Numbered from the stretch's first letter, positions 40,379 through 64,000 are shown. The stretch: 64,000 bases of DNA from an uncultured delta proteobacterium (GCA_963842085.1 CAWJET010000001.1:3008001-3072000); one strand, 5' to 3'. Notes: generated from the letters alone by a model not told the origin. Numbers and translations: made by a program.

Positions 40379-40861
40379 TCAACGGGAGGGCCGAAGACGG
40401 GTGGCCGCTGCGTCAACCGCCTCTACGATGCTCTGGTAGCCGGTGCATCGGCATAAGACCGCCGATAGCGCGTGTCGGATTTCCTCTTCATTAGGGGACT
40501 GGGTCGTGCGCAGCAGATCCAGTGCGACAATCAGCATGCCCGGTGTGCAAAATCCGCATTGCAGCGCATGATGTTCCCAGAATGCCTGCTGCAACGGGTG
40601 CAGCTTGCCCTCGTGGGCAAGACCCTCGACGGTGAGCAATTCCGCGTCGTTGGCCTGCACCGCGAGCATCAGGCAGGAACGCACGGCCTCGCCGTTGAAC
40701 AAGATGGTGCACGCGCCGCATATCCCGTGTTCGCAGCCCGTATGGGTGCCGGTCAGGCCGAGGTCGTCGCGGATAAAGTCGACGAGTAGCCGGCGCGGCT
40801 CGGCCCATCCCTCGCGCAGTTCGCCGTTGACTTTCAGCTGGATCTTTCTGTGCTCCGCCAT
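40379..40861 (-). CDS. 2Fe-2S small subunit (CoxS/HmfC-like)
   Basis: GCEHGICGACT, QCGFCTPG, LCRCTGY. Confidence 0.93.
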   Translation of the reverse strand: MAEHRKIQLKVNGELREGWAEPRRLLVDFIRDDLGLTGTHTGCEHGICGACTILFNGEAVRSCLMLAVQANDAELLTVEGLAHEGKLHPLQQAFWEHHALQCGFCTPGMLIVALDLLRTTQSPNEEEIRHALSAVLCRCTGYQSIVEAVDAAATRLRPSR

Positions 40862-49683: not shown

Positions 49684-49840
49684 TGTCCAATATTATCGCA
49701 CAGAGTTTATTGAGCAACGATATTGTCCTCTTGCACCGAACTGCCTAGATTACTTGGCCACAGACCCTTTCGCGGTTGTGGAATTGGTCGAACCTCGAAG
49801 GGTAAGTTCGCTCAGCTTCAATCGCGGCTGGAGGAGCACG

Positions 49841-51070
49841 ATGCGCGGACCTCTGGATGGTTATCGAATTCTCGATACCACCACCATGCTGTCCGGTCCT
49901 TGGGCGACGATGATCCTGGCGGACCAGGGCGCCGATGTAATCAAGATCGAGGCGCCCGAGCGTGGCGATCACGTCCGCCATCTCGGCAACCGCCGCGGGG
50001 GGATGTCCGCGATGTTCCTGAACATCAATCGCAACAAGCGCTCGGTCGCGATTGACCTCAAGACCCGGGACGGAGTCGCGTTGCTGAAGCGAATCGCTAT
50101 CAGTGCCGACGTCTTCGTGCAGAACTTCCGGCCGGGAGTCGTTGAACGGCTCGGGATTGGAGAGCGTGACCTTCGCAAAGTCGCGCCTGAAATCATCTAC
50201 GTCTCGATCAGCGGTTTCGGCGAAAACGGGCCTTGGGCTCATAAGCCCGCCTACGATCCGATCATACAGGCGCTGTCGGGTCTTACCACTGTCCAGGGCG
50301 GCTCCGACGCCGAGCGCCCGCGTCTGATTCGCACCGTGTTGGCGGACAAGCTCAGCGCAGTGGTTGCGTCACAAGCGATTACCGCCGCGCTGGTCGCGCG
50401 AGAGCGAACTGGTAAGGGGCAGCACGTCAGGGTCTCGATGCTGGACGCGATGCTCTACTTCCTTTGGGCGTCGGACATGAGCATGCAGACCTACCCGGAT
50501 AATCGTCAGGGGTCTCAAGCGGCGGCGAGCTTCATCGATCTCATTTACGAGACCAGAGACGGTTACATGACCGTAGCGGTAATGAGCGACAAGGAATGGG
50601 CCGGGCTGACCCGCGCGCTGGAGCGCCGTGAATGGCTCGACGATCCGCGGTTCGCAACACCCGTCGCGCGCGACAAAAATGTCGACGAGCGCCTGCACCT
50701 GACCCAGGAAGTGCTGCGCACGCGCACCACCGCCGAATGGATGGAACGCCTCGAGGCTCAGGACGTGCCGTGTGCGCCCGTGTTGACCCGCGACGCAGTG
50801 ACCCGACATCCGCAAGTAATTGCCAGCGACATCGTGGTCGAGCTCGATCACCCAGCTGCCGGGCGTCTCAGGCAAACCCGCGCCCCGGCACGATTCGACA
50901 AGACGCCAGCCTCGATTCGGTTTGGCGCGCCACAGCTCGGCCAGCACACGCGCGAAGTTCTAACCGAGCTTGGGCTGACCGCCCCGGAGGTTCGTGATCT
51001 GGAACTCAAAGGAGTAATCGGCGTCGCCGAGGCGTTAACAAATTCCGAGACCACTACGACTGCGGATTAG
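49841..51070 (+). CDS. CaiB/BaiF family III CoA-transferase
   Basis: GPLDGYRILD, ADQGADVIKIE, NRNKRS, NFRPG, SGFG. Confidence 0.92.
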   Translation: MRGPLDGYRILDTTTMLSGPWATMILADQGADVIKIEAPERGDHVRHLGNRRGGMSAMFLNINRNKRSVAIDLKTRDGVALLKRIAISADVFVQNFRPGVVERLGIGERDLRKVAPEIIYVSISGFGENGPWAHKPAYDPIIQALSGLTTVQGGSDAERPRLIRTVLADKLSAVVASQAITAALVARERTGKGQHVRVSMLDAMLYFLWASDMSMQTYPDNRQGSQAAASFIDLIYETRDGYMTVAVMSDKEWAGLTRALERREWLDDPRFATPVARDKNVDERLHLTQEVLRTRTTAEWMERLEAQDVPCAPVLTRDAVTRHPQVIASDIVVELDHPAAGRLRQTRAPARFDKTPASIRFGAPQLGQHTREVLTELGLTAPEVRDLELKGVIGVAEALTNSETTTTAD

Positions 51071-51118
51071 AGTCCGCGGCCCACGGGCCGGTCGGAACGA
51101 GCGTGAGGAGGAACGCCA

Positions 51119-51793
51119 GTGAGCACAGTACTTGTTGTCGGTGCCGACCGGGGTATTGCGCACGCGATTTGCCTGCAACTGAAGGAGCGCGGAGACGACC
51201 TTATCGCGGCGTGTCTCGGCGAAGGTGCGGACTTGCGCGCGCGCGGCATTCGGGTCGAACCGCAGGTGGATGTTACTTCGGATTCGGCCGTTCGGCGCTT
51301 GGCCGACAGGCTCACGGCTGGGAAAATTCATCTGGATGTGGTGTTTCACGTGGCCGGCGTGCTCGGCCTGGACGAGCTCGGCAAAATCGACTTCGATGAC
51401 GTCCGCCGTCAGTTCGAGATCAACACGCTTGGACCCCTGCGGCTGGTGCAGGCAGTGCTTGGTTGTCTCGGGCCCGGTTCCAAGGTGGGTATCGTGACCA
51501 GCCGCGTCGGCTCGCTCGGTGACAATACGTCGGGCGGCATGTATGCGTACCGAATCTCCAAGGCCGGGGCGAACATGGTAGGCCGCAACTTGTATCACGA
51601 TCTGAAGAAGAAAGGCGTGGCTGTTCTGTTGCTCCATCCAGGTATGGTGAACACCGATCTTACCAGGGGTATTCCCGGCAAATACATTCAGCCCGAAGAG
51701 GCGGCGGCGGGATTGATCAAGAGAATGGACGAACTCACGGTCGAGACTGGCGGCGTGTTCCGGCATGCGAACGGTGAATTACTACCTTGGTAG
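51119..51793 (+). CDS. Short-chain dehydrogenase (CsgA-like)
   Basis: GADRGIA, YAYRISKA, LHPGMVNTD. Confidence 0.9.
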   Translation: MSTVLVVGADRGIAHAICLQLKERGDDLIAACLGEGADLRARGIRVEPQVDVTSDSAVRRLADRLTAGKIHLDVVFHVAGVLGLDELGKIDFDDVRRQFEINTLGPLRLVQAVLGCLGPGSKVGIVTSRVGSLGDNTSGGMYAYRISKAGANMVGRNLYHDLKKKGVAVLLLHPGMVNTDLTRGIPGKYIQPEEAAAGLIKRMDELTVETGGVFRHANGELLPW

Positions 51794-51820
51794 CCATTTC
51801 GTTACACGGGGGATATTAGG

Positions 51821-52540
51821 ATGATTACTATCTATCAATACATTCCTGGCTGGAATGTACCCTGCATTAGTCCTTTCGTCACCAAAACTATTTACTACAT
51901 GAGGATGGCTGGCATACCGCATGAAGTTAAGCGGCAGGATCTCAGCCGGCTGCAGCAGGATGCGCCGTACGGAAAGCTGCCTTTTATTGATGACAACGGC
52001 GTCAAGGTCGCGGACTCTACCGCGATCATTGACTATCTGAGGAAATACGCCGACCTGGACAGCGATGCCACTGCAACCGAAAGGGCGCAGATGCTGGCGT
52101 GGAACCGGATGATCGATGAGCATACCTACTGGTGCGCGGTGATTCAGCCCCGCTGGCGCGAAGAAGCCAATTGGGAAATTTATTTGCCGATCATTTTCGG
52201 TGCGAGCCCGGTTCCTCCCGAGGTGCGCCAAACGCTGGAGGAGTTTCGCAAGCTTATTCTATCGGAGTTTCTCGGTCACGGCGTCGGACGTCTGCCGGAC
52301 AACGTCGTCTATGAGCGCGCGCGAGCCGATATCGATGCAATCTCCGACTTTCTGGACTCAAAGCCTTACTTCATGGGCGAAAAGTTGCGCTCGATCGATG
52401 CGAATTTGCTATCGATGCTCGATCACATCATCTATACGCCATTCAAGTTTGACACCAAGGACTACGCGCTCGGCAAGAAAAACCTGGTGGACTACAGCCA
52501 GCGCATGAACAAGCGCTTCGGGAAACCCGAAGCTCGGTGA
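51821..52540 (+). CDS. Glutathione S-transferase-family protein (metaxin/FAX-like)
   Basis: SPFVTK, PYGKLPFI, ADSTAIIDYL, YFMGE. Confidence 0.85.
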   Translation: MITIYQYIPGWNVPCISPFVTKTIYYMRMAGIPHEVKRQDLSRLQQDAPYGKLPFIDDNGVKVADSTAIIDYLRKYADLDSDATATERAQMLAWNRMIDEHTYWCAVIQPRWREEANWEIYLPIIFGASPVPPEVRQTLEEFRKLILSEFLGHGVGRLPDNVVYERARADIDAISDFLDSKPYFMGEKLRSIDANLLSMLDHIIYTPFKFDTKDYALGKKNLVDYSQRMNKRFGKPEAR

Positions 52541-52679
52541 GCTCGTCATTCGGCTCGAGTGGGTTGCGGTAGCGTCCTATTGGGTTCGCGATCGCAAAGT
52601 CGGCGGGGGATCATCCCGGGGTCCGCACGCTTGACGGGTACGTTTAGACTCCATTATAGGGAAGATAAGGTGCCCTACT

Positions 52680-54689
52680 GTGTCAGAGACTTTTGCGCGA
52701 GGTGATCCTCGTGCGTGGCTAGTATCGCCTTCTGTACGCGATACGTTGGCCCAAATTGCTCGGCAGCGAGATCAATTTCTCTGCGACCTGCCCACCGATG
52801 GCTTGCGGCCTTTGATACGCGACCGATGGAACTTGTGCAAATCAGTCGGAATCGATCCGCATTCTGCGCGTGCGCCTGACGGCCTCACGCGAGAACACAT
52901 CGAAGAAATCCTTCGGGTTGATGATTTTGGACACATCGGCAGGCAAGTCGCTGACGACTTTGCGCGCGTGATCAGCGGCTCGGGACACTATCTGGTATTG
53001 GCTGATCGATCCGGTCGAATCTTTTACGCGGTGGGAGATGATCGCGTGAAGGCGGGCTTGGAGGGGGTTAATTTCATTCCGGGCGGCCTTTGGACGGAGG
53101 AGGCAGTGGGGCCGAATGGAGTGGGAACCGCGTTGGCGACCGCTGCGCCGGTATTCGTGTGGGGTCCCGAGCATTTCTGCGAAGGCTGGCAACCCTGGAT
53201 TTGCTACGGAAGCCCGGTGCGCGACCCTGTCTCCGGTCGCGTGACAGGCGCAGTTGATATTTCGGGCCCGGCTCCAACTAGAAGCGAGATGGCCTTCAAT
53301 CTGACCGTAACCGTGGCTCGAACGATCGAGCGTTCGCTGGGCGCAAGAGCGTTGCAACGGCAGCAAGCGCTGATCGCGGAATTTCTCGCGGCAACCAAAC
53401 GCTGGCCGAACGATGGCATAATCCTGGTGGACGAAAACGGGCGAATATTGGAACTCAATCCCAGGGGCATGGCGCTCCTCAAGCGCGATGTGCGCACCCT
53501 GATGGGGTATCCTTTGAAAGACGCTTCGCCAGAGCTCGACGAGTTCGTTCAACATTGCTGGAAAAATGGCGAGACCCTCGAACGAACAACAGAGCGACAT
53601 GCTACCCAGATTCACGTGCATTGCAGCTTGACGATAGTTGATAGAAAGGCTTCAGGATGTTTGTTGATTTTGCGGTCAGTTGAGCCTTCCCGGCCTCACG
53701 CTTCTCCTCGAGCCGCGAGCGCGATGGCCGTGGAACCGGCAGTGACATTCGCGGACATCAAGGGTCGCGACCCTGCTCTGGTGGCAGCTCTGCACAAGTC
53801 GAGAACGGCCGCGGGAAACGACAAGACGGTGCTGCTCACGGGAGAGACCGGGACCGGTAAGGATCTCTTCGCGCAAGCAATCCATGGTGCGAGCAGACGC
53901 GCCGGCGGTCCATTCGTCGCAATAAACTGCGCGGCGCTGCCGAGCGAGTTGTGCGCGAGCGAGCTTTTCGGATATGCGCGCGGAGCGTTCACCGGAGCAA
54001 AAGCGCACGGCAGTCTGGGTAAATTCGCCCAAGCCAGCGGTGGCACTTTATTTCTCGACGAAATCTCCTCGATGCCATTTGATTTGCAAGCGACGCTGCT
54101 TCGGGCGATCGAGACAAAGAGCGTGACACCGCTGGGATCATCTCGCAGCCAAGCGGTGGACGTCAGAGTCATTGCCGCGGCTAACGAAGAGCTCTCAACC
54201 TTGGTGAACCGTGAGCGGTTTCGAGCGGACCTTTACTACCGTCTCAATGTCATCTCCATCCGATGCCCACCGTTGCGCGGGCGCGCCGAAGACATACTTC
54301 TTTTAGCAAGCGGCTTTCTCAATCAAGGGTGTGGGGAAGTAGGCCGTACGCCTTTGATACTGTCAGAAGAAGTGAAAGATATCCTGGTCCAACATTCCTG
54401 GCCTGGGAACGTACGAGAACTCCAGAATCTGTGTGCCAGATGGATCGAAGAGGTGGAAGCCGACGTTGTATCCTTCTCCGATCTTCCCCCCGAGATGCAA
54501 CCAGAGTCTCCTGCAGTGGCCGCCAAGGAAGTGTCTCTGGCAGACGCAGAAGCTGAATTGATAGTGCGAACAATTAGGGAGTGCAACAACAATATCAGTA
54601 TGGTGGCTCGCCGCCTCGGTGTTTCCAGAGCCACCATTTACAACAAGCTCCGCGTTATACAAGGCGGCAGTGTGAAGAACGGCAACTGA
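52680..54689 (+). CDS. Sigma54-dependent activator, AcoR/DhaR-like (GAF-PAS-AAA+-Fis HTH)
   Basis: WTEEAVGPNGVGTALA GAF, GETGTGKD, GAFTGA, LFLDEI, WPGNVREL, LGVSRATIYNKL. Confidence 0.93.
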   Translation: MSETFARGDPRAWLVSPSVRDTLAQIARQRDQFLCDLPTDGLRPLIRDRWNLCKSVGIDPHSARAPDGLTREHIEEILRVDDFGHIGRQVADDFARVISGSGHYLVLADRSGRIFYAVGDDRVKAGLEGVNFIPGGLWTEEAVGPNGVGTALATAAPVFVWGPEHFCEGWQPWICYGSPVRDPVSGRVTGAVDISGPAPTRSEMAFNLTVTVARTIERSLGARALQRQQALIAEFLAATKRWPNDGIILVDENGRILELNPRGMALLKRDVRTLMGYPLKDASPELDEFVQHCWKNGETLERTTERHATQIHVHCSLTIVDRKASGCLLILRSVEPSRPHASPRAASAMAVEPAVTFADIKGRDPALVAALHKSRTAAGNDKTVLLTGETGTGKDLFAQAIHGASRRAGGPFVAINCAALPSELCASELFGYARGAFTGAKAHGSLGKFAQASGGTLFLDEISSMPFDLQATLLRAIETKSVTPLGSSRSQAVDVRVIAAANEELSTLVNRERFRADLYYRLNVISIRCPPLRGRAEDILLLASGFLNQGCGEVGRTPLILSEEVKDILVQHSWPGNVRELQNLCARWIEEVEADVVSFSDLPPEMQPESPAVAAKEVSLADAEAELIVRTIRECNNNISMVARRLGVSRATIYNKLRVIQGGSVKNGN

Positions 54690-55028
54690 CGACGCGATGC
54701 GTATGAAAGGCAATCTGTCGAGCGCGTCTTGCTAGACGGTCGCAAAACAATCGACCTCTTGCGTTTTTCTTCGAGTTACAGCTTCATCCAATTGAACGTT
54801 AGCGCTGCGGGCATTGGGTTCAGAGCCTGACTTTCGGCCTGGAACGTCCCGGCAATGCCCCTTTCCCGTCGGCTTCGAGTTCCGCCGGCTTCTGTTGTTG
54901 TTCGCTACCTGCCCGGACACGTAGATGTGTAAATGTTCAAAACAGCTGTGAAGGCAGACCGTCAAAAAGCTGGACACTTTGGATCACAATGCGAACTGAT
55001 TAAGCCACCATTGCATAGACAGTCACTT

Positions 55029-55044
55029 CGGCATGACTTTTGCG
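55029..55044 (+). promoter_or_regulatory. Sigma54 (-24/-12) promoter of the aldehyde dehydrogenase
   Basis: cGGcatgacttttGCg with exact GG-N10-GC spacing; adjacent to the bEBP gene. Confidence 0.75.
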
Positions 55045-55169
55045 GTGTCGAACCTGCCGAGGAGATTTCAGGCGACGGAGATTCTCGCCTCACATTTAGC
55101 GGGCGCGGTCTTCGATGTCAGTCGCCAGTGGATAGACGCGACAGCTGAAACATAAGGAGTTGAAGGCAG

Positions 55170-56693
55170 ATGGGAGTGACAGTCTCGGAGGAAAAGAAAG
55201 CTGGTGGAGCGGCACCAGCAGCGATCAGCAACTTACTGAACTCGCCAAGGCGTCTGTTAATAGGGGGCAAGTGGGTCGCGGCCAAATCCGGCAAAACCTT
55301 TGAGACCCTCGATCCCGCCACTGAAGAAGTTCTTGCTCAAGTGGCCGAAGGAGACAGACTCGACGTAGATGAAGCTGTCAAGGCAGCTCGCTGTGCGCTC
55401 GACGACGGCGCTTGGCCAAAACTTTCCCCATCCGAGCGCGGACGGCTCATCTGGAAGCTTGGCGATTTGGTTGAGAAGCACGGCGCGGAATTGGCCCAGT
55501 TGGAAAGCCTCGATAACGGCAAGCCGGTCGCAGTGGCCCAGGGGGCTGATGTTCCGCTTTCCGCAGACACTCTCCGCTACATGGCTGGATGGGCGACGAA
55601 GATCGAGGGAAACACGATACCTCTCTCCGTTCCCTACACGCCCGGAGCCCGTTACCTGGCGTACACGGTTCGCGAACCGGTCGGCGTTGTAGGACAGATC
55701 ATTCCCTGGAATTTTCCCTTACTCATGGCCGCATGGAAACTAGGACCAGCTTTGGCCGCGGGATGCACCGTAGTACTGAAACCCGCGGAGCAAACCCCGT
55801 TGACGGCTCTGCGTCTGGGCGAACTTATCATGGAAGCGGGGTTCCCTGATGGCGTCGTAAACATTGTGACCGGATACGGCGAAACGGCCGGCGCGGCGCT
55901 GGCAGCCCACCCCGGAGTCGACAAGGTGGCATTCACCGGTTCGACCGAGGTCGGAAAGTTAATCCTGAAAGCGGCGGCGGGAAACCTGAAAAAAGTCACG
56001 CTGGAGCTCGGCGGAAAGTCGCCCAACGTGGTCTATGCAGACGCCGATCCGGAGTTGGCAATTGCTGGAGCCTCAAGCGCAATTTTCTTCAATCACGGCC
56101 AGTGCTGCTGTGCCGGCTCGCGGCTCTACGTGCAGGAGCAGGCCTTTGATCAAGTTGTTGACGGAGTCTCGAGAGAAGCCAAACGCATCAAGCTGGGCCG
56201 CGGTCTCGACCCGGAGACGCAGATGGGTCCTCTAGTGTCGGACGAACAATTGAAGCGGGTGACCGGGTATATTGCATCCGGACTGGAACAAGGTGCGAAG
56301 GCGGTAACCGGCGGAGGCCGGATCGGACGCTCGGGCTATTTTGTTGAACCCACGGTGTTGGTGAACACGCGAGCCGACATGAAGGTTGTCCAGGAGGAAA
56401 TCTTTGGGCCGGTGGTATGCGCTATCCCATTCAAGAGCGAAGAAGAGATCGTTCAGGCTGCGAACGATACGATCTACGGGCTCGCCGCCGGAATATGGAC
56501 CCGCGATGTAGGTAAAGCGCATTCTCTGGCCGCGAAACTGCGCGCGGGCACCGTCTGGGTCAACTGCTACAACATTTTCGATGCAGCAATGCCGTTCGGG
56601 GGCTACAAGCAATCCGGATGGGGCCGGGAGCAGGGTCACGAAGTGCTTGAACATTACACTGAGAGCAAGTCGGTCTGCGTCCGGATCGACTAG
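55170..56693 (+). CDS. NAD-dependent aldehyde dehydrogenase (ALDH1/2, phenylacetaldehyde DH-like)
   Basis: IIPWNFP, KPAEQTP, FTGSTEVG, LELGGKSP, GQCCCAG, EEIFGP, PFGGYKQSG. Confidence 0.95.
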   Translation: MGVTVSEEKKAGGAAPAAISNLLNSPRRLLIGGKWVAAKSGKTFETLDPATEEVLAQVAEGDRLDVDEAVKAARCALDDGAWPKLSPSERGRLIWKLGDLVEKHGAELAQLESLDNGKPVAVAQGADVPLSADTLRYMAGWATKIEGNTIPLSVPYTPGARYLAYTVREPVGVVGQIIPWNFPLLMAAWKLGPALAAGCTVVLKPAEQTPLTALRLGELIMEAGFPDGVVNIVTGYGETAGAALAAHPGVDKVAFTGSTEVGKLILKAAAGNLKKVTLELGGKSPNVVYADADPELAIAGASSAIFFNHGQCCCAGSRLYVQEQAFDQVVDGVSREAKRIKLGRGLDPETQMGPLVSDEQLKRVTGYIASGLEQGAKAVTGGGRIGRSGYFVEPTVLVNTRADMKVVQEEIFGPVVCAIPFKSEEEIVQAANDTIYGLAAGIWTRDVGKAHSLAAKLRAGTVWVNCYNIFDAAMPFGGYKQSGWGREQGHEVLEHYTESKSVCVRID

Positions 56694-56807
56694 CGTCACT
56701 AGAACTTGGGGATTCATTTCGATTGGTCATTCGGCATCCCCAGAAGGGCTGCGGTCACCGGAGTCAAGAAGCTGAAACCCGGGTATAGAGCTTTGGGCAA
56801 ACTTTCT

Positions 56808-57617
56808 TCAGAGCTGCGAATCGTAGTAGCCGCGTACCGTACGGTCGGGAAGTTCAACCACTGGATGGGCGCACAGCGCACCCAGCGTCATCGCGGAATC
56901 AAATCGATCGATGTGGTACTGGCAGATCATTGCGACCTGCGGATATTTGTCTGCCAAGCGGTTGAGCCGTCGTTCGTAGTCAAGAATCCCCGATACCCCA
57001 TTTGCACCCGAGCAGTACCAGGACATCTCGCCCGTAATCAGCGCCTTGCTTTTGCCTCCCGACAGCATTTCCTGGACGGATTTCTCGACGAACGCGAGCA
57101 TCGCGTCCGCACAGAAGCCGCCGTCGCGCAGATAGGCTTCGGAGGAGGGCACCGCTCGCAACACACCTCGGCGAGTCAGCTCGTCGGGGTCCGTCCCTTC
57201 CGAACGCAACAGGCTCATCAGGCGTGCGCGGGGAGTGCTGTCGTAGATATAGAGAATCGGCGCTCCAAGGCGCACGTACTTAAGCAGGTACGGGCGGAAC
57301 ATCCGGAACTGCTCTTCCTCACTAGAGTAATGCAGACTGATGTGGCTGTCGTTGCTCGGCTGCTGCAAGCCAACCTGCGGCCGAGGCCCGTCGATGGCGA
57401 CGGTGGGCGTCGTCGATTGACCACAATTGGCGCCTCCGGGGGCCAAAAAAGCTTCCAATTCGGCCTTTGCGAAGCGCCTTTCGCCGCGGAGGCCGACTCG
57501 AAAGCATCGCAGGCGGCCAGTGTTGGTCCAACGGCGCAACGAGATCTTACTCACTTTCAGAAAGCGCGCGGCTTCTTCGATGGTCAGTATGTTCGAATCT
57601 TCCAGCATCTCGATCAC
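56808..57617 (-). CDS. Excisionase-type HTH + MEDS (DcmR-like sensory) domain regulator
   Basis: LTIEEAARFLKVSKISLRRWTNTGRL...RRF then HISLHY..EEE...AYL.DGGF...TGEMSW...YE..LN...ICQY...F...HP. Confidence 0.85.
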   Translation of the reverse strand: MIEMLEDSNILTIEEAARFLKVSKISLRRWTNTGRLRCFRVGLRGERRFAKAELEAFLAPGGANCGQSTTPTVAIDGPRPQVGLQQPSNDSHISLHYSSEEEQFRMFRPYLLKYVRLGAPILYIYDSTPRARLMSLLRSEGTDPDELTRRGVLRAVPSSEAYLRDGGFCADAMLAFVEKSVQEMLSGGKSKALITGEMSWYCSGANGVSGILDYERRLNRLADKYPQVAMICQYHIDRFDSAMTLGALCAHPVVELPDRTVRGYYDSQL

Positions 57618-57694
57618 ACAAGCTCTGCTAATAACGACATTGGAGCAATTTAACCCGAACTGCTAACCTCAAGCAAACTGCGAATGACCAAATT

Positions 57695-57790
57695 CAGCAA
57701 GAATAAGCAAGATGATGCAATCGCATGTTTGACATTTCGTCGAAAGACGGAGTATGAACATTAAGATTCATCGAGATTAATCAAGATAGC
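57695..57790 (+). promoter_or_regulatory. Divergent promoter with 10-bp-phased direct repeats
   Basis: TTGACA at 57729; GCAA at 57697/57707/57717; AGAT at 57764/57774/57784. Confidence 0.55.
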
Positions 57791-57881
57791 CCATGTTATA
57801 TCATCGGTAGTTCGTGAGGCAAGAAGAAGAAGGCAGCACCCGGGGAAAGCGACTTTGAGACTGCAGGGAGGGACGAACTTG

Positions 57882-58859
57882 ATGAAGACGACGCTACGGC
57901 AGGTTCAGATTTCGTGGCTGGCTGCAACACTCTTAATCGGGTGTTTGCTTTTCCCGACGGGAGCACGCGCCGGCAGCGCCGCAGGGGATCCGAGTGTGAA
58001 GCAAATGCTGCGGCAGGTGGAGCAAAGGCTCGACACAGTGGAGCAGGAGAATCAGTCCCTTCGGCAGCAGGTCCTCGAATTACGGCAGCAGGTCAATACG
58101 CAGGCTCCCACTGTCTCCGCGATGCAGCAACATATGACGCAGGTAATGCCTCAGACAGAACAGCGTGTCGCCAACATGGAGAGAGAGCAGGAAGCTTCGG
58201 ACCAGCAAGTTGCGAGTCTGAAGCAGAAGGTTGAATCGCCGTTCAAAGGCAGCGCGCTCGGGTTTAGGGCCGGATGGTCAGAAGTACCATTCGACCTGCC
58301 CGGCGGTTTCTTTTGGGACATGCATCTCGGCCATCGATTATTCGAGCAGCGGGACGGAATCCCGTTTGGCGATATCAATGGCGAGCTCGCGATCGGCCTG
58401 ATTCAGGGCAATCATGAGCCGATAACACTGAGCACGCTTGCCGGCACCCCTCTTGCGCATCCCGTGAATACTCAAGCTGATGTGTCGCTGGTTACCGTCG
58501 CTCCGACCGTTCGGTACACGCTCAGGGCCTTGGAGCCATTTGAACCTACCGTGTTTGCTGGTCCTGAAATCCTTATCAATCTGTTCGAATTCAGCCCGCT
58601 AAATGCGGGTCAGCTGCCGATACCGCCCCAACTCAGTCAGAGGGGTATCCCTACTATCGGTAGCGGGCACGTTTTTGCGGGTGCGGTATTCGGCGCGGAT
58701 CTTCAGTACCGGCTGTCTGATATCGCTTCTGCGCTGAATATTCCAGCGTCTGAGCGGTTTTTCTCGAAAATCACGGTGGGGCCGGAATGGCGGTACCACG
58801 CAATGGAGAATGGCGAGAACTTCCAATCTTACAGCGGTGAGATTACCATTGGTTTTTGA
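57882..58859 (+). CDS. Outer-membrane beta-barrel protein with N-terminal coiled coil
   Basis: Signal peptide (ARA), Gln-rich coiled coil, amphipathic strands, C-terminal Phe. Confidence 0.65.
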   Translation: MKTTLRQVQISWLAATLLIGCLLFPTGARAGSAAGDPSVKQMLRQVEQRLDTVEQENQSLRQQVLELRQQVNTQAPTVSAMQQHMTQVMPQTEQRVANMEREQEASDQQVASLKQKVESPFKGSALGFRAGWSEVPFDLPGGFFWDMHLGHRLFEQRDGIPFGDINGELAIGLIQGNHEPITLSTLAGTPLAHPVNTQADVSLVTVAPTVRYTLRALEPFEPTVFAGPEILINLFEFSPLNAGQLPIPPQLSQRGIPTIGSGHVFAGAVFGADLQYRLSDIASALNIPASERFFSKITVGPEWRYHAMENGENFQSYSGEITIGF

Positions 58860-59040
58860 GCAAGATTTGTGATGGACCCCGTAAACGGGCAGAACGGTAG
58901 ATAAGCATTGGTAACCCGGGGAACATTAGGAATGATGAATCGTTGGTTAAGTAGCGCTAAAAAGGTTAGATTAAATCAACACCGGAGCGTGAGGGACAAT
59001 TGATTGCCGGCCCGGATGGGCTCGAAAGCAGAAGATGTTA

Positions 59041-59088
59041 AATCGCCGCCGCAGACTGACCATTCCGTCGGTCTCTGGGTGGCGGATT
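59041..59088 (+). other. Imperfect stem-loop in the xmoC leader
   Basis: aatcgccgccgcagactgac...gtcggtctctgggtggcggatt. Confidence 0.45.
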
Positions 59089-59129
59089 GAAGACGAGAAT
59101 TTTTCGCGAGCTAAGGAGGCTAAACGAAA

Positions 59130-59969
59130 ATGGCGACTGAATCGGCAAGAGCGGAACTAACCGAAGTTAAGAAGAGTGACAAACTGTCCTGGAACTGGAT
59201 TAACCCGAAAATCATGATCGTGGGCGTCGCAGCGCTCACCGTGTTCTATGTTTCACTGCGGCTTTACCAGCAGAAGTTTGCATGGAGCATGGGACTGGAC
59301 TCGACCTCACCTGAGTTCAAGACCTACTGGATGAATCTGCAGTACGCGCTTTGGGCGTTTGAGATGCTCTTGGCGGCGTCACTGTGGAGCTGGGTATGGT
59401 TGACTCGCCCTAACGATCTAGATCGGCTCGAGCCCAAGGAAGAGATGCGGCGGCTGGGCGTATTGATAGCGATTATCGCTGTGTATGTGTTCGCGGTGTT
59501 CTGGGCCGGCAGCTTCTTCGCCGAAGAGGACGCGGTCTGGCATCAGACCGTTGTTCGCGACACCTCGTTCACGCCCAACCATATAATCCTCTTTTATACC
59601 ACCTTCCAAGTTTATATCGCTATCGGCGTGACGGCTTACCTGTACGCGAGGACGCGGTTGCCGCGTTTCGCGGCCCGGCATTCAATTCCGTTTGTAATCG
59701 CTGTTGCTGGACCTTTCATGCTGCTGCCGGTCGTCGGCTACAACGAGTGGATGCATTCCTTCGTTATTCTCGAGGAGCGTTTTACGGCTCCGGTGCACTA
59801 CGGGTTCGTACTTTTCGGGTGGACGGGGTTCGGTCTTGGTGGTCTGCTTCTTCAGATCTGCGACTACATCTATGAGCTGACCACCGGAAAGGCGCAGACC
59901 TACAACAAGGGCGAACCGGCATCCGATCCGGCGCTCGATTTCGAGACCGATGTTCCAAAGGTTGCTTAA
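59130..59969 (+). CDS. xmoC: Copper membrane monooxygenase subunit C (PmoC/AmoC family)
   Basis: GLDSTSPEFKTYW, WAGSFFAEEDAVWHQTVVRDTSFTPNH, GPFM, NEWMH...EE.F.APVHYGFV.FGW; RBS taaggagg. Confidence 0.95.
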   Translation: MATESARAELTEVKKSDKLSWNWINPKIMIVGVAALTVFYVSLRLYQQKFAWSMGLDSTSPEFKTYWMNLQYALWAFEMLLAASLWSWVWLTRPNDLDRLEPKEEMRRLGVLIAIIAVYVFAVFWAGSFFAEEDAVWHQTVVRDTSFTPNHIILFYTTFQVYIAIGVTAYLYARTRLPRFAARHSIPFVIAVAGPFMLLPVVGYNEWMHSFVILEERFTAPVHYGFVLFGWTGFGLGGLLLQICDYIYELTTGKAQTYNKGEPASDPALDFETDVPKVA

Positions 59970-60008
59970 AGGCGGTTTCAACTGATCTGAGCACCACTGA
60001 TTGATTTT

Positions 60009-60037
60009 GGGTCCGGGCCGATACTGGTCCGGACCCC
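60009..60037 (+). other. Stem-loop between xmoC and xmoA
   Basis: gggtccgg-gccgatactggt-ccggaccc. Confidence 0.5.
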
Positions 60038-60096
60038 AGCAGACGCGAACGGTTTGGCTCTTCGAACACACGAGATTTGACTCGGGAGGAATAATC

Positions 60097-60861
60097 ATGG
60101 CGGCTGGACTTCAGGCTCGCACAAAGACGGCATTCGACACGCCTGAGGAGATGCGGAAAGCGTATCGCCAGTTCGACTTGGTCGTGGCGGTCATCCTCTT
60201 CTTCCTGTTCATAGCGCTTTACCACATAACGGCGATGCTGACGATCGGTGACTGGGATTTTTGGGCGGATTGGAAAGACCGGCGGTGGTGGATCACTGTG
60301 ACGCCGACTCTTCTAATCGCCATGCCCGCAGCAGCTCAGTACATCTTCTGGGGCAAGTTCCGTCTCCCGTTTGCTGCTACGCTTCTGACCTTCTGCCTGG
60401 TCAGTGCCGAATGGCTGAACCGGGTGGCCAACATGCACGGTTGGGCGTACTTCCCCATCGATTTCGTATGGCCGGCGACGCTGATTCCGTCGGGAATAGC
60501 ACTTGACTGTGTCCTGATGTTGACCGGCAGTTACGTGATGACGGCGATAATCGGGGGTGGGATTTGGTCGTTTTTGTTTTACCCAACGAACTGGGTGATG
60601 CTGGCGCGGTACATGCAGCCTACCAACATGCACGGGTTCCTGATGTCGCTGGCCGACGTAATGGGCTATCAGTTTGTGAGAACCGGAACCCCCGAATATT
60701 TGCGCTACATCGACCGCGGGACGCTGCGCTCGTTTGGCGAGGATCCGATCTATATATCTATGGCCTTCGCGGCGTTTGCCTGCATGCTCATTTACATGAT
60801 CTTCGTCGGCGTGGGATATCTTTTTACGAGAAGTCAGTTCAGTTGGCTTAAGCGCATATAA
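60097..60861 (+). CDS. xmoA: Copper membrane monooxygenase subunit A (PmoA/AmoA family)
   Basis: YHITAMLTIGDWDFWADWKDRRWW, EWLNR, FYPTNW, RTGTPEYLRYIDRGTLRSFG; RBS ggagg. Confidence 0.96.
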   Translation: MAAGLQARTKTAFDTPEEMRKAYRQFDLVVAVILFFLFIALYHITAMLTIGDWDFWADWKDRRWWITVTPTLLIAMPAAAQYIFWGKFRLPFAATLLTFCLVSAEWLNRVANMHGWAYFPIDFVWPATLIPSGIALDCVLMLTGSYVMTAIIGGGIWSFLFYPTNWVMLARYMQPTNMHGFLMSLADVMGYQFVRTGTPEYLRYIDRGTLRSFGEDPIYISMAFAAFACMLIYMIFVGVGYLFTRSQFSWLKRI

Positions 60862-60917
60862 CCTATCGATCAACATCGCGAAGCGGCCATCAACTTCAGA
60901 GAAGCGCGGTTAATCAA

Positions 60918-62204
60918 ATGCATTCGAAAAGGTTAGGTTGGAAAGCTTTGGCGGTAAGCGCCTCAGCACTGTCCTTTATCCTGGCACTGAGCATGGCAGT
61001 CGTGGCGGTGCCTGGAACGGCTGCTGCACACGGCGAGCGCGCTGAGCCTCCGTTTCTCAGGATGTCCACCATCCAATGGTACGATACGCACTGGTCCTCG
61101 ACCCACGTCAAAGTGAACGAGGAGATGACCATAACCGGGCGTTTTCACGTCGTGAAGAACTGGTCTTTCGCGATCGCCGCGCCCGACCTGGCGTTTCTGA
61201 ACGTGGACGTGCCCGGGCCGGTTATGGTCCGCATGGCCAGCACCATTGACGGGGTCAACGGCGCCGCTTCGACGCCGCTCGAACTCGGCAGGGACTACGA
61301 ATATACGATCGTCCTTCGCGGCAGGATCCCGGGACGCTACCATGTTCATCCGATGTTGGACGTGCGCGACGCCGGTCCGCTTCTGGGTCCGGGTGATTGG
61401 GTCACAGTTGACGGAGATGCGGCGACTTTCACAGACCCGATTACGACGCTCACGGGTGAAAAGCTGGACTTGGCGCACTACGGGATGAGTGGCGTCGTGA
61501 GCTGGCACGTGCTGTGGGGATTGATGGCGGTGGCATGGCTGCTGTACTGGATTGCCAAACCGTTGTTGATGCCCAGATACGAAGCTCTGCAGCACGGCGA
61601 GGGTGAGAAACTGGTAACCCTTACCGATAGGATCGTGGCTGTTGGGTTTCTCGGCGCGACAATATTGATCGTACTCTTCGGCGCGATGGTCACCCGCGTG
61701 TGGTATCCAGTGACCATCCCATTGCAGTCCACTTGGCTGCGGATTCCTCCTTTGCCCAAGCAGCCGGATACCATTACCATGACTTCGGATAGCGTGATCT
61801 ACTACATTCCCGGCCGCACCGTGGAATTCTCGGTAAAAGTCACTAACAATGGCACCAAGCCGGTACAGATCGGCGAGTTCACCACGGCGGCGGTGAGATT
61901 TCTGAATTCATCGATCCGCCAGCCCGAACCTGACTATCCTCCAGAACTGATTGCCCCGGCCGGCCTGGTGGTCGAGCCGAATGAACCGATTCAGCCGGGA
62001 GAGACCAAGGCGCTTCATATCCTGGCCAGCAGCCCGGTCTGGGAAACCGATCGACTGGCGTTGCTGATAGCCGATCCGACCAGCCGAATCGGCGGGCTGT
62101 TCATGTTCTTTGATCCGGACAACAACCGCACTATGGTGGAGTTCGACAGCGAGATTATGCCGACCTTCGTCCGTCCACCGGCTGCGGCGGCGACGACGAG
62201 CTAG
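60918..62204 (+). CDS. xmoB: Copper membrane monooxygenase subunit B (PmoB/AmoB family)
   Basis: Signal peptide then HGERAEPPFLRM..IQWYD, YHVHP, TIPLQ, YYIPGR, GEFTTA.VRF, PIQPGET, RIGGLFMF. Confidence 0.96.
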   Translation: MHSKRLGWKALAVSASALSFILALSMAVVAVPGTAAAHGERAEPPFLRMSTIQWYDTHWSSTHVKVNEEMTITGRFHVVKNWSFAIAAPDLAFLNVDVPGPVMVRMASTIDGVNGAASTPLELGRDYEYTIVLRGRIPGRYHVHPMLDVRDAGPLLGPGDWVTVDGDAATFTDPITTLTGEKLDLAHYGMSGVVSWHVLWGLMAVAWLLYWIAKPLLMPRYEALQHGEGEKLVTLTDRIVAVGFLGATILIVLFGAMVTRVWYPVTIPLQSTWLRIPPLPKQPDTITMTSDSVIYYIPGRTVEFSVKVTNNGTKPVQIGEFTTAAVRFLNSSIRQPEPDYPPELIAPAGLVVEPNEPIQPGETKALHILASSPVWETDRLALLIADPTSRIGGLFMFFDPDNNRTMVEFDSEIMPTFVRPPAAAATTS

Positions 62205-62238
62205 GGGTCAGAGTGCTGATCGATCCAGGGAGGCAACG

Positions 62239-62835
62239 GTGAGCCGCAAAATCAGTTTGGTCGCGGGTTTGCTGTTAGGCTTGGCGTACGCTGGATCGGC
62301 GTGGGCGCACGGCGGTGGCCCTGGACTCAGCTACGACCCCTGCGCGCAGCGGGTCGGCTTGTACTACGTCCACATGGCGGTCTACCAGCCGCAGGTTGAC
62401 AGTAGTCAGGAATACTGCGGCAAGATACCGCGTGGTGGCGACACTCTCATGGTATTCGACCTGGTGGGAACCGAGATGCGCCACACACCGGTAGCAGTTA
62501 ATATACTCGAAACTGGCGGGCGCTCGGGAAGCTACGTGGTGGCCTCGGTTCCCGAGGGCGAACATGTATCCGGCGTCATCGACATCAACCTTCCGCTGCA
62601 AGCAGGGCACAGTTATCAGGCGGTCGTCACGGTGGGTGAGGCGCCGGCGAATTACACTATTACCTTTCCAATCAGCGTCAACGCCTGGTGGAACGGGCTT
62701 GAACTGCCGGGGCTGCTGGTTCTCGTCGTACTCGGGGGTTCGATCTTTTACGGTCTCAGGCTCCGACGGGAGCATTTGGTCACGCAGCGCAAGGCCGAGA
62801 TGCGCACCCGTATTCGCGCTGTCGGCAGCGGCTGA
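62239..62835 (+). CDS. PmoD/AmoD-like periplasmic membrane-anchored protein
   Basis: AWAHGG...DPC...HMAVYQP...EYC..IP..G.T.MVFD, C-terminal TM; immediately after xmoB; GTG after ggagg. Confidence 0.75.
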   Translation: MSRKISLVAGLLLGLAYAGSAWAHGGGPGLSYDPCAQRVGLYYVHMAVYQPQVDSSQEYCGKIPRGGDTLMVFDLVGTEMRHTPVAVNILETGGRSGSYVVASVPEGEHVSGVIDINLPLQAGHSYQAVVTVGEAPANYTITFPISVNAWWNGLELPGLLVLVVLGGSIFYGLRLRREHLVTQRKAEMRTRIRAVGSG

Positions 62836-62885
62836 GAGCTGTTCAATTGATTCTTTTGGACGATCGGACGACCAGGACGGTTTTT

Positions 62886-63536
62886 ATGTCAGAACGAGTT
62901 GTTTACATCGAATCATTGTTGTCTGTGTTGAGGCCACGGATGGCAAATGCTCTAGCGCTTGCAATTCTGCTGTGTTGCGCCGCTTGCTCTCCTCCTCCAA
63001 CGGACTCGGCGGCGCCGCTGGGGCCGGGCCTGTCCGGCGTGTCGCCGAAGCTGTTGCTCTACAACCAGAACGCGCAACCGGTGGAAGCGGGATCAATGAC
63101 GGGACGCCCCATAATAATCGCGTTCATCGATACATCTTGCACGGGAATGTGTCGGCTTACCACGAACAAACTACGCCGGGTGGCAGACGACCTCGGAGCG
63201 GAGCAGAAGCAGAAAGTTCAATTTGTGCTGGTAACTTATAACCCGGTATTCGACGGTCCCAAGCGTCTCAGACAGTACGCGCAGGACATGCACCTCGATA
63301 CCCCGCACTGGATGCTGTTGACAGGCACGCCTGCCAATATTGACTGGATGCTTGGGCGCTTCGGGTTGCCGGCGGTCGGGAATTTTGAGGAGCCGGCGCA
63401 ACTGATGGACGCACTTGACTACGTGTTCCTGGTCGCGCCTGACGGCAAGATCGTGAAGAAGTACAAAGGCGGGGATTTCGTAACCACCGCAGTTGCGCAG
63501 GACGCGCGCCAGGTACTGAACAAAGGCGCCTCATAG
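62886..63536 (+). CDS. SCO1/SenC-family protein
   Basis: FIDTSCTGMC (CxxxC), VTYNP..DGP..LRQY, W.LLTG; start may be 62940. Confidence 0.8.
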   Translation: MSERVVYIESLLSVLRPRMANALALAILLCCAACSPPPTDSAAPLGPGLSGVSPKLLLYNQNAQPVEAGSMTGRPIIIAFIDTSCTGMCRLTTNKLRRVADDLGAEQKQKVQFVLVTYNPVFDGPKRLRQYAQDMHLDTPHWMLLTGTPANIDWMLGRFGLPAVGNFEEPAQLMDALDYVFLVAPDGKIVKKYKGGDFVTTAVAQDARQVLNKGAS

Positions 63537-63648
63537 AAGCGCATCTCACTACTCAGTACTTCTTTAAGAATGGCTATTCTGATTGGCTAGTGCATCTGAC
63601 TCATCTGATACTCACAACACGAATCCTAACGAAAATGGGTGACTAATT

Positions 63649-64000
63649 ATGAAAGCGGCAGTAATTAAAACATTCGGCAAGCCACTAACTATCGAGGATC
63701 TCCCGAAGCCACAACCCGGCCCCGGCCAGGTGGTGGTCAAGATTGAGACTTCCGGCCTTTGCCATACCGATATCCACGCCGCCCACGGCGACTGGCCCGT
63801 GAAGCCCAAGCTCCCGCTGGTGCCGGGGCATGAAGGCGTTGGAATCGTTGAGCGGCTTGGCCCCGGGGTTTCGGAGGTGAAGGAAGGAGATCGCGTCGCG
63901 ATTCCGTGGTTGGGCTACGCGTGCGGCGCATGTGAGTACTGTGGGTCGGGTCGGGAGACGCTGTGCGAGCAGCAACTATGCACTGGCTATTTCATTGATG
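63649..64000 (+). CDS. Zinc-dependent alcohol dehydrogenase (AdhP-like), truncated by the window end
   Basis: Manual translation MKAAV...[31 protein letters not shown]...ACGACEYC...ETLC. Confidence 0.92.

Follow-up and report, generated by a model that had tools for sequence, protein, structure and literature searches.

The locus described here occupies positions 52680-64000 of a stretch of 64,000 nucleotides (the window) from an uncultured delta proteobacterium (GCA_963842085.1 CAWJET010000001.1:3008001-3072000). The host is a soil bacterium of the class Binatia, family Binataceae, whose own genome is 100% complete. Gene calls and Pfam/NCBIfam profiles recover every gene listed by the first-pass annotation, in the order and on the strands claimed:

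52680-54689, plus strand: sigma-54 activator with GAF, PAS, AAA+ and HTH_8 domains (Pfam)
55029-55044, plus strand: candidate sigma-54 -24/-12 promoter (GG-N10-GC, own scan)
55170-56693, plus strand: aldehyde dehydrogenase, ALDH (Pfam Aldedh, 606 bits)
56808-57617, minus strand: HTH_17+MEDS regulator (Pfam MEDS 119.5 bits, HTH_17 46.8 bits)
57882-58859, plus strand: secreted 325-residue protein (translation)
59130-59969, plus strand: xmoC (Pfam AmoC, 279 bits)
60097-60861, plus strand: xmoA, 254 residues (Pfam AMO, 290.5 bits)
60918-62204, plus strand: xmoB, with signal peptide (Pfam Monooxygenase_B, 465 bits)
62239-62835, plus strand: xmoD, pmoD-like (sequence, profile and fold match to PmoD 6CPD)
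62847-63536, plus strand: ORF of a Sco-like lipoprotein (Pfam SCO1-SenC, 70.8 bits)
63649-64000, plus strand: zinc alcohol dehydrogenase, Zn-ADH, truncated by the window end (ADH_N, ADH_zinc_N)
L002:1832-6629, beyond the window: CoxS, CoxL, CoxM, CoxG and SCO4226-like genes (Fer2_2, MoCoBD_1/2, FAD_binding_5, CoxG)

The locus thus extends past the window end, and its CoxS/L/M/G-type genes lay outside the view of the first-pass annotation. An xmoA start at 60001 was rejected in favour of the ATG at 60097, which has GGGAGG just upstream and yields the 254 residues also found in homologues. The Sco-like gene probably starts at ATG 62886 or 62940. An overlapping ORF (62564-63241) is probably not a gene, as relatives do not conserve it. 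Synteny was compared with 12 metagenome loci whose XmoA is at least 71% identical, and with a 60-65% subclade made up of 17 loci plus L120, L121, L122, L005 and L007.

XmoC, XmoA and XmoB match the AmoC, AMO and Monooxygenase_B families far above the Pfam cut-offs, and their adjacent genes follow the CAB order of copper membrane monooxygenases (CuMMOs) on one strand. In alignments, H38, H142 and H144 of XmoB coincide with the CuB histidines of solved PmoB, and XmoC, aligned to solved PmoC, keeps D134/H138/H151 and N205/H209/H223. We take these groups to be the CuB His-brace in B and the CuC (Asp/His/His) and CuD (Asn/His/His) sites in C; all nine ligand positions of this presumed set are retained. 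The claim of a complete CuMMO locus in a non-canonical (Binatia) host is borne out by the three subunits, their order and their ligands. The solved structures that best match the Xmo subunits are pMMOs: XmoA scores 262 bits against solved pMMO versus 215, 204 and 202 against solved AMOs, and XmoB 388 versus 355, 335 and 324. The NCBIfam models AmoA/B/C_BACT are also passed (306, 506 and 319 bits), but the AmoA_BACT name is generic, because PmoA of the methanotroph Methylogaea oryzae bears it too.

Members of the PmoD/AmoD family possess a signal peptide, a periplasmic cupredoxin-like domain with two invariant cysteines and a C-terminal membrane helix (Fisher 2018). XmoD is a true member of this family, as sequence, profile and fold agree. 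It exhibits a signal peptide, a cupredoxin-like domain and a C-terminal membrane helix, and it matches PmoD 6CPD with E-values of 8.8e-6 (single sequence) and 2.2e-16 (profile). Its AF2 model (pLDDT 87.3) comprises a signal helix, a β-sandwich and a helix spanning residues 149-195, and Foldseek ranks 6cpd first (E 2.8e-9, TM 0.74). The gene lies directly 3' of xmoB in all eight whole comparison loci and in 9/9 aligned sequences; C34 and C59 (alignment numbering) are invariant in the nine sequences, as is a histidine right after the predicted signal cleavage site. The Cx7MxH...C motif of the CuA-forming PmoD subclass is absent from XmoD, which has Cx7YxH instead; its relatives harbor Y, S, L or D at the position of the methionine, some with a longer spacer.

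The Sco-like lipoprotein has a thioredoxin fold and a CxxxC that aligns with that of B. subtilis Sco. Its designation as a SCO copper helper holds for the SCO1/SenC family and this motif, but the canonical distal copper-ligand histidine of SCO1/SenC chaperones is missing: an aspartate aligns with the B. subtilis Sco histidine, and all six relatives have D, N or S there. The gene likewise follows xmoD in L128, L131, L135, L137 and L119.

The secreted protein possesses a signal peptide, a long coiled coil and a β-rich C-terminal part ending in GF, and has only 10 close homologues (53-97%). The first-pass annotation called it an OM barrel, a reading drawn from a low-confidence AF2 model (pLDDT 58.8; helix 37-117, then about 10 strands) and from Foldseek matches, all weak (E no better than 3e-3), to the 8-stranded barrels Ail, OmpX, NspA and OmpW. 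With an atlas feature match ('porin family', 0.95), these point to a probable outer-membrane barrel (OMP below). Its gene lies upstream of xmoC in L128, L129, L130, L135 and L136. Paralogues at 32-38% identity occur in other Binataceae genomes.

The MEDS match of the divergent regulator spans profile positions 2-161 of 161 and follows an N-terminal HTH, the architecture of DcmR-type regulators. Divergent from the OMP-xmo genes, the HTH-MEDS gene is kept at 80-88% identity beside the OMP gene in L128, L129 and L130. The sigma-54 activator (Pfam Sigma54_activat 215.7 bits, with AAA_lid_14, HTH_8, PAS_4 and GAF) reaches the cut-off of no NCBIfam equivalog, the best being DhaR (318 versus 551 bits); it is present in L129 and L130 (90%) and absent from L128. 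The candidate promoter (55029-55044, CGGCATGACTTTTGCG) lies about 125 nt before the ALDH start and agrees with 8 of 11 letters of what we take to be the -24/-12 consensus. L129 and L130 carry the same element in the corresponding position; it is not recovered at two or fewer mismatches, a stringency at which the window shows no enrichment of the pattern (30 matches, 28.6 expected).

The whole Zn-ADH gene encodes 337 residues (L002:650-1663). The protein scores 415 bits against the solved tetrameric ADHs 1rjw, 3pii and 6iqd and 383 against 3s1l and 1llu, which by sequence places it closest to NAD-dependent ethanol-type ADHs; homologues at 95-96% identity occupy the same place in L128 and L131. 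The ALDH is an NAD(P)-dependent, class 1/2-like enzyme. Among solved structures it scores highest with phenylacetaldehyde dehydrogenase 4o5h (618 bits) and next with ALDH2-type enzymes; with a StyD-type model it scores 694 bits, under the cut-off of 850. L128, L129 and L130 have no ALDH in this position, and in L135 a 76% homologue comes after the Sco-like gene. Both the sigma-54 activator and the ALDH, variable even between relatives at 92-93% identity and missing in some, are accessory parts of the locus. The Cox-type enzyme has S, L and M subunits, and its large subunit carries AYRGAGR at residue 360, presumably the active-site loop that marks a form II CoxL-type molybdenum hydroxylase. This form-II CoxSLM-type enzyme, not the ALDH, is the constant aldehyde-side partner.

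The XmoA/B/C phylogeny proposed earlier was run for XmoA as a quick tree of 127 rows; named actinobacterial HMO, Haliea, betaproteobacterial, AOB and TUSC references are not among the rows, and the TUSC/Cluster 2 reference clones AJ579663, AJ868246, EU723743 and KC122308 lie outside the comparison. XmoA falls in a 22-row clade (SH-aLRT 99, stem 0.6) of solely Binataceae-titled or metagenome rows, with identities of 60-93% inside the clade and at most about 54% to anything else. A strict pMMO would nest in the canonical pmoA clade (35 rows, those of Methylococcus, Methylobacter and Methylocapsa among them); XmoA does not. On the other hand, its clade is sister to no characterised hydrocarbon CuMMO in this tree, being sister neither to the Cycloclasticus nor to the verrucomicrobial rows, with weak deep forks. 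A far branch holds the Binatia types at 36-44% identity, which probably match the Actinobacteria/SAR324-like type of PMC8262859.

In the parts of the literature consulted, Binatia (Binatota) MAG CuMMOs are already published as 'putative pmoA' of uncertain function (Murphy et al. 2021, PMC8262859; bioRxiv 10.64898/2026.02.02.703227), in agreement with the earlier statement that they had been reported and not functionally characterised. The enzyme clade is known from metagenome surveys, to which this locus adds one member. As described in the portions seen, the published systems share with it the host class, a contiguous xmoCAB in CAB order, pmoD in part of the genomes, a lack of convincing methanotrophy modules and a position near hydrocarbon monooxygenases. 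Unlike the present analysis, those sections treat genes and whole-genome modules, and no description of a MEDS, OMP, Sco-like, ADH and CoxSLM neighbourhood was found in them. The clades they name are TUSC, 'Binatales' and bmoA-like, TUSC being assigned to the Binatia order JACPRU01 (bioRxiv 10.64898/2026.02.02.703227); the family of the window host is Binataceae.

Hydrocarbon-oxidising CuMMOs comprise the actinobacterial hmo/bmo, the Cycloclasticus pHMO and the betaproteobacterial xmo systems. Like these, the locus resides in a non-methanotroph host and has NAD-linked alcohol and aldehyde dehydrogenases alongside, the adjacency expected of an HMO-type locus, although the tree does not make its XmoA sister to the Cycloclasticus rows and holds no named actinobacterial sequence. 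The locus most likely works in the same way. With a probability of about 0.6, we regard it as a working Binataceae-clade copper monooxygenase whose most likely substrate for hydroxylation is a small hydrocarbon other than methane, with C2-C4 alkanes as the leading guess. The first-pass proposal of a non-methane, non-ammonia substrate agrees with the XmoA placement, with AMO scores below pMMO scores and with the lack of MDH and HAO matches, but the substrate itself is unproven.

The substrate may instead be a small molecule other than an alkane, for which acetone, ethylene, halomethanes and methylated heteroaromatics are candidates; such chemistry would then be reflected in the MEDS regulator and the molybdenum hydroxylase. 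We consider this unlikely, if worth keeping in view. HTH+MEDS regulators have precedents, in the portions seen of PMC11507031, beside dichloromethane and epoxyethane genes and are linked to the sensing of such compounds: DcmR of the Methylobacterium dichloromethane dehalogenase and the HTH-MEDS protein of the Methylohalobius crimeensis epoxyethane cluster share the one-component architecture and a position beside genes for small hydrocarbon derivatives, whereas the putative regulator of the window is paired with a CuMMO. An acetone-oxidising CuMMO homologue, PmoCAB3 of Methylacidiphilum, is described in the part seen of PMC8630023. The form-II CoxL type is one without a known substrate, and a GST gene lies immediately upstream of the locus in the window, as in L128 and L129. 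Against this, the verrucomicrobial rows are not the sister group of the clade, no epoxide or CoM genes were found in the locus, and terminal alkane oxidation classically runs through an ADH and an aldehyde oxidiser.

It is rather improbable that xmoCABD merely has the ADH, Cox, ALDH and regulator genes as neighbours and shares no pathway with them. Only the nearest subclade (XmoA 72% or more) repeats the core MEDS-OMP-xmoCABD-Sco-ADH-Cox. Within the set at 71% or above, the OMP gene is upstream in five of the seven loci with enough upstream DNA, the Sco-like gene downstream in four of the five with enough downstream DNA, and an ADH or ALDH downstream in three of four. The 60-65% subclade has bare xmoCABD cassettes in unrelated contexts (amid flagellar genes in L121), with no ADH, ALDH, MEDS or OMP gene beside them and a sole Sco-like match (29%, L138, about 8 kb downstream). 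The linkage to these genes is therefore lineage-specific. These lone cassettes favor mere neighbourhood, as does the coming and going of the sigma-54 activator and ALDH. However, two independent arrangements, ADH-Cox (L128, L131) and ALDH-ADH' (L135), put an alcohol/aldehyde dehydrogenase straight after xmoD-Sco, so that the dehydrogenase pairing recurs in these three loci and not in the 60-65% subclade; the genes also share one strand with short gaps. The description of a 'self-contained module' accordingly holds for the nearest subclade but not for the ALDH and the sigma-54 activator, nor for the bare cassettes. In a same-genus genome, xmoC and the 5' part of xmoA are lost, and the locus is therefore dispensable.

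That the enzyme is a methane monooxygenase, serving an unconventional and perhaps atmospheric-methane oxidiser, is quite improbable. Methanol would be oxidised by the Zn-ADH or an Fe-ADH, formaldehyde and formate by the ALDH or the Mo enzyme, and CO2 fixed via the Calvin cycle, the route by which verrucomicrobial and NC10 methanotrophs obtain their carbon. Such a lifestyle is kept formally possible by a form I RuBisCO operon, complete with FBPase, PRK, aldolase, both RuBisCO subunits (large and small) and CbbX, and the genome also has one Fe-ADH (98.5 bits); moreover, the locus resembles proteobacterial PmoCAB-PmoD (3RGB, 7S4H, 6CPD) in its CAB order, complete CuB/CuC/CuD ligand positions and PmoD-fold fourth gene, and pMMOs are its best solved relatives. 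According to the parts seen of PMC4678205 and PMC8262859, it has long been suspected that related soil clusters oxidise methane. Yet the complete genome yields neither a PQQ methanol dehydrogenase above cut-off (TIGR03075 best 22.5 versus 480 bits) nor any Fae match, the C1 partners of a strict pMMO. The locus further differs from proteobacterial pMMO in an XmoA only about 44-49% identical to the named pmoA-type rows and outside their clade, and in an XmoD that lacks the motif's Met. Its ADH is of the ethanol type. The 2026 preprint (bioRxiv 10.64898/2026.02.02.703227), in the part seen, found neither methanol-oxidation nor assimilation modules in Binatia MAGs carrying genes of this kind, which it placed among hydrocarbon monooxygenases. 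Ammonia oxidation is very improbable despite the generically named AmoA/B/C_BACT models, given solved-AMO scores below solved-pMMO scores and no match to the HAO family (PF13447) in the complete genome, a search whose positive control was also silent; two 8-haem ORFs, identified independently of that search, belong to other cytochrome families. The proposed genome search for xoxF, mxaF and hao turned up no matching MDH or HAO pathway.

The preferred hydrocarbon reading builds on observed gene identities, metal ligands, clade placement, recurring synteny and missing MDH, Fae and HAO matches; its substrate, its enzyme-to-enzyme flow and all its regulatory links are inferred, as follows. XmoCAB with its PmoD-family subunit would hydroxylate a small hydrocarbon to an alcohol, which would enter the cytoplasm. 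There the NAD-dependent, ethanol-type Zn-ADH would convert it to an aldehyde, which the form-II CoxSLM-type molybdenum enzyme encoded after the ADH would oxidise to an acid, the extra ALDH offering a second such route in this genome. The acid would reach central metabolism as acyl-CoA; the genome has three methylmalonyl-CoA mutase matches, and family III CoA-transferases recur near the locus. An isocitrate-lyase superfamily match in the genome is weak and partial (41 bits), which leaves a route for assimilating C2 units doubtful, and no soluble di-iron monooxygenase match was found in the complete genome. The Sco-like lipoprotein and PmoD may handle copper or thiols in the periplasm, and the coiled-coil outer-membrane protein may provide a passage for copper or substrate. 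The DcmR-like HTH-MEDS protein would sense a small hydrocarbon derivative and control the OMP-xmo genes, and the sigma-54 activator would drive the ALDH through the -24/-12 promoter.

A bolder and tentative proposal, doubtful as it stands, is that the nearest subclade (XmoA 72% or more) represents a distinct functional CuMMO type, with its own OMP, MEDS regulator, His-less Sco-like protein, non-CuA PmoD, ethanol-type ADH and form-II Cox enzyme. It would belong to soil Binataceae living on traces of hydrocarbons from the atmosphere or from soil gas (ethane, propane and the like, even methane) together with Calvin-cycle CO2 fixation. If true, this Binataceae type would give a function to one long-unassigned 'pmoA-like' soil cluster.

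A complete copper membrane monooxygenase (CuMMO) locus in CAB order, as the first-pass annotation had it, is borne out by the gene calls, the family scores and the copper ligands. The host genome, G000, an uncultured member of the Binataceae, measures 4.93 Mb in two contigs, is 100% complete and contains one xmoA copy. The genes of the locus are listed below.

Genes of the xmo locus (window positions unless stated; scores are family scores)
52680-54689, + strand: sigma-54 activator (GAF-PAS-AAA+-HTH_8)
55170-56693, + strand: aldehyde dehydrogenase (ALDH), 606 bits
56808-57617, - strand: HTH_17+MEDS regulator
57882-58859, + strand: secreted 325-aa protein (OMP), with signal peptide, coiled coil and beta-rich C-terminal part
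59130-59969, + strand: xmoC, 279 bits
60097-60861, + strand: xmoA, 290 bits, ATG behind GGGAGG
60918-62204, + strand: xmoB, 465 bits
62239-62835, + strand: pmoD-like gene, GTG behind AGGGAGG
inside 62847-63536, + strand: SCO1/SenC-family gene, 70.8 bits
from 63649, cut by the window end, + strand: zinc alcohol dehydrogenase (Zn-ADH), whole protein 337 aa
L002:1832-6629 (DNA continuing past the window), same strand as the ADH: CoxS-, CoxL- and CoxM-type subunits, CoxG and a SCO4226-like gene

In alignments, the CuB histidines of solved PmoB fall on H38, H142 and H144 of XmoB, whose signal peptide ends at AAA/HGE. Both metal sites of PmoC are likewise matched in XmoC, by D134/H138/H151 and N205/H209/H223. 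As far as the sequence tells, the CuMMO is intact in G000 and nothing there suggests decay. The large subunit of the Cox-type enzyme contains AYRGAGR, which we take to be the form-II CoxL loop. An Rfam search found no match in the xmo locus, and an ORF at 62564-63241 was dropped as a gene for want of conservation. The G+C content of xmoCAB is 56.5% versus 61.5% for the genome (5th percentile of its 5-kb windows, 57.1%), and its GC3 is 0.69-0.72 versus 0.84 in rpoB.

An XmoA search of a 5.8-billion-protein database yielded 1082 candidates, and 123 proteins passed. Homologues P0001-P0026 are 60-93% identical to the window protein and subsequent full-length proteins at most 55%; partial ones further down the list (P0048, P0116 and one other) reach 73-76%. 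In a quick IQ-TREE phylogeny (127 rows, thinned at 88% identity, SH-aLRT support only, without named AOB, actinobacterial or TUSC references), the window XmoA belongs to a 22-row clade (support 99, stem of 0.6 changes per column) composed solely of Binataceae-titled and unnamed metagenome rows, and inside it to a 7-row subclade (support 98). This clade lies outside the 35-row clade of Methylococcus, Methylobacter and Methylocapsa (support 99) and is also separate from the Cycloclasticus rows and from a clade with a Methylacidiphilaceae-titled protein. The expected position outside the canonical pmoA clade is thus recovered in the XmoA tree, the one tree built, whose deep forks are open. The sole named AMO comparison is with solved structures: XmoA scores 262 bits with the best pMMO and 215, 204 and 202 bits with AMO entries, and XmoB 388 bits versus 355, 335 and 324. 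The window subunits pass the NCBIfam 'AmoA/B/C_BACT' models, a name also borne by Methylogaea oryzae PmoA (P0056) and therefore uninformative on ammonia.

The pmoD-like gene is a genuine gene. It directly follows xmoB in all eight whole comparison loci, and its profile matches PmoD 6CPD with an E value of 2.2e-16 over the entire periplasmic domain. In the predicted model (pLDDT 87.3) a signal helix is followed by a beta-sandwich and by a long helix at the C terminus, and 6cpd ranks first in Foldseek (E 2.8e-9, TM 0.74). Both family-defining cysteines are kept; whereas CuA-forming PmoDs exhibit Cx7MxH, the window protein has Cx7YxH. A histidine directly behind the predicted signal cleavage site (AH-GG) is found in 9/9 aligned members. 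The protein encoded downstream has a lipoprotein-type signal and CxxxC, but Asp stands where B. subtilis Sco has its histidine ligand, a position occupied by D, N or S in the six relatives (6/6). As this ligand is absent, the protein is named only Sco-like, and it may handle copper or thiols.

The 325-aa protein possesses a coiled coil (residues ~37-117) behind its signal peptide and a GF end to its beta-rich part. Its model is poor (pLDDT 58.8) and Foldseek relates it only weakly to small outer-membrane barrels, so that an outer-membrane barrel is accepted as probable only; an atlas feature search named porins. Ten near homologues (53-97%) were found, together with paralogues at 32-38% in about 18 Binataceae genomes, mostly without the window's xmo type. 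The 33% paralogue of G000 itself (G000:C1:1309546-1314769; L218:3546-8769) adjoins DUF1326, a PpoB2 'copper chaperone' and a COX1-like gene; the latter two neighbours give a weak hint that the family may serve copper supply, not substrate entry.

The window proteins were compared with 29 metagenome loci, 12 with XmoA at least 71% identical and 17 in a 60-65% subclade. The OMP gene precedes xmoC in five of the seven loci with enough upstream DNA (L128, L129, L130, L135 and L136; not L133 or L137), and the Sco-like gene follows xmoD in four of the five with enough downstream DNA (L128, L131, L135 and L137; not L133). An ADH or ALDH lies downstream in 3/4 loci with XmoA at or above 71%: L128 and L131 harbor a 95-96% identical ADH and then Cox genes, and L135 a 76% ALDH and then another ADH. 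That the same chemistry occurs in two different arrangements speaks for a functional link. Less constant are the sigma-54 activator and the ALDH: both are absent from L128 (92%), and L129 and L130 (93%) have the activator without the ALDH. The 60-65% subclade (the 17 metagenome loci plus L120, L121, L122, L005 and L007) exhibits a bare four-gene xmoCABD cassette in unrelated surroundings. The earlier view of a self-contained module therefore stands for the nearest subclade, where the ADH/ALDH pairing recurs, but not for this bare cassette. In L121, from a same-family genome, xmoCABD (9293-12992) is set among flagellar genes, between a group for FliP, FlgE, FlgD and a FliI-type ATPase and another for MotB, FliN and flagellin, which suggests that the cassette is mobile as a unit. 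A family III CoA-transferase is often found 3' of the cassette (L140, L142, L144, L145, L147 and L007). To note, L138 (9164-16801) carries tandem CuMMO operons, one of the window-clade type (65%, short xmoB match), then a distant one (30-36%), followed by a Zn-ADH.

On the analogy of DcmR and of the M. crimeensis epoxyethane cluster, the MEDS protein is the likely local sensor. A candidate sigma-54 GG-N10-GC element, CGGCATGACTTTTGCG (55029-55044), about 125 nt 5' of the ALDH gene, is also found in L129 and L130; these being close relatives, its conservation is weak evidence. Genuine enrichment of the sigma-54 pattern was not seen (30 matches with at most 2 mismatches versus 28.6 expected, no intergenic site in the locus), and a sigma-70 consensus scan of 54600-64000 gave 0 sites versus 3.9 expected. 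By eye, a TTGACA-18-TATGAA stretch lies 5' of the OMP gene.

Upstream, an integrated conjugative-element-like island of ~30.5 kb occupies 5636-36158 and encompasses the low-G+C stretch at 14-36 kb.

Features of the tRNA-Asn island
5636-5711: tRNA-Asn, start of the island
5677-6969, - strand: integrase
7732-10464: TrwC relaxase
10468-12261: TrwB/T4CP
13116-13445: TrbC pilin-like gene
36122-36158: closing repeat, 37 nt, directly repeating the 3' part of the tRNA

The xmo locus as cargo of this island is ruled out, since the repeat at 36122 ends it 16.5 kb before the locus. Inside the island, two overlapping ORFs at 21349-22673 (- strand) correspond to the two halves of a FadL/TodX-family outer-membrane transporter (profile positions 2-166 and 200-395), a split or frameshifted gene. 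Beyond it, at 37860-44154 (- strand), lie two more large subunits of molybdenum hydroxylases, accompanied by FAD and 2Fe-2S subunits; an enoyl-CoA hydratase and family III CoA-transferases (36558-37823, 49754-51070) flank this set. Counting the Cox-type set after the ADH, three Mo hydroxylases lie within 30 kb.

The locus is read, with a probability of about 0.6, as a module for a non-methane, non-ammonia hydrocarbon, C2-C4 alkanes taking roughly two thirds of that weight. The periplasm-facing CuMMO would hydroxylate a small hydrocarbon, the Zn-ADH would oxidise the alcohol, the Cox-type Mo enzyme (with the extra ALDH in G000) would oxidise the aldehyde, and the acid would be taken up as acyl-CoA. 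Among solved structures, tetrameric NAD-dependent ADHs come nearest to the Zn-ADH (1rjw, 415 bits); enzymes of this kind favour short primary alcohols such as ethanol. The ALDH belongs to the broad class 1/2 type. The search for xoxF, mxaF and hao suggested at first pass turned out as anticipated, with no PQQ methanol dehydrogenase above cut-off in G000 and no match to the HAO family (PF13447), a search whose control was also silent. A motif count picked out two 8-haem ORFs, both members of other cytochrome families. Fae has no match in G000, nor has SDIMO (PF02332), again with a silent control; one Fe-ADH, three methylmalonyl-CoA mutase matches and a single weak isocitrate-lyase-superfamily match are present. 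Methane as the CuMMO substrate is improbable, and is kept in consideration for the pMMO-like copper ligands and for a complete Calvin-cycle operon (G000:C1:691800-697800; L211:1800-7800) with glpX FBPase, PRK, class II aldolase, form I RuBisCO large and small subunits and a CbbX-like AAA protein.

Among 401 sampled genomes of the host's class, a tally that takes in the unpublished G590, 88 encode any XmoA homologue and only five the window's type: G000, one same-genus genome (84%) and three same-family genomes (61-64%); the remaining types are 48-53%, 41-46% and 36-41% identical. XmoA of any type occurs in 3/29 other genomes of the host genus. The best three titled genome records are each 'Candidatus Binataceae bacterium' (61-64%), and an NCBI protein titled Candidatus Binatus sp. 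(P0016) is 85% identical. L119, the same-genus genome, retains a remnant of the same locus: a 9.3-kb deletion, equivalent to window 50961-60262, takes GST, the sigma-54 activator, ALDH, MEDS, OMP, xmoC and the 5' part of xmoA, and the surviving xmoB, Sco-like, ADH and Cox genes match only brokenly (tblastn). The locus thus appears accessory, and decayed in that sister species. Eight runs carry it, all soil-metagenome DNA from two studies (one possibly the source), and no RNA run is among those eight listed.

Binatia CuMMOs, their CAB order, their pmoD genes and doubt on methane are published (PMC8262859; bioRxiv 10.64898/2026.02.02.703227). The texts found in a literature search gave no account of the MEDS-OMP-xmo-Sco-ADH-Cox neighbourhood, which their figures or supplements may already show. 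The window clade may equal the published 'TUSC', 'Binatales' or another clade.

For two decades, upland-soil pmoA-like genes have been regarded as possible methane sinks without known function. The ADH, ALDH, Mo enzyme and one-component MEDS regulator are soluble, expressible handles on the substrate that bypass the hard-to-express membrane enzyme. Should that substrate prove to be a C2-C4 alkane instead of methane, marker surveys scoring such sequences as methanotrophs would need correction.
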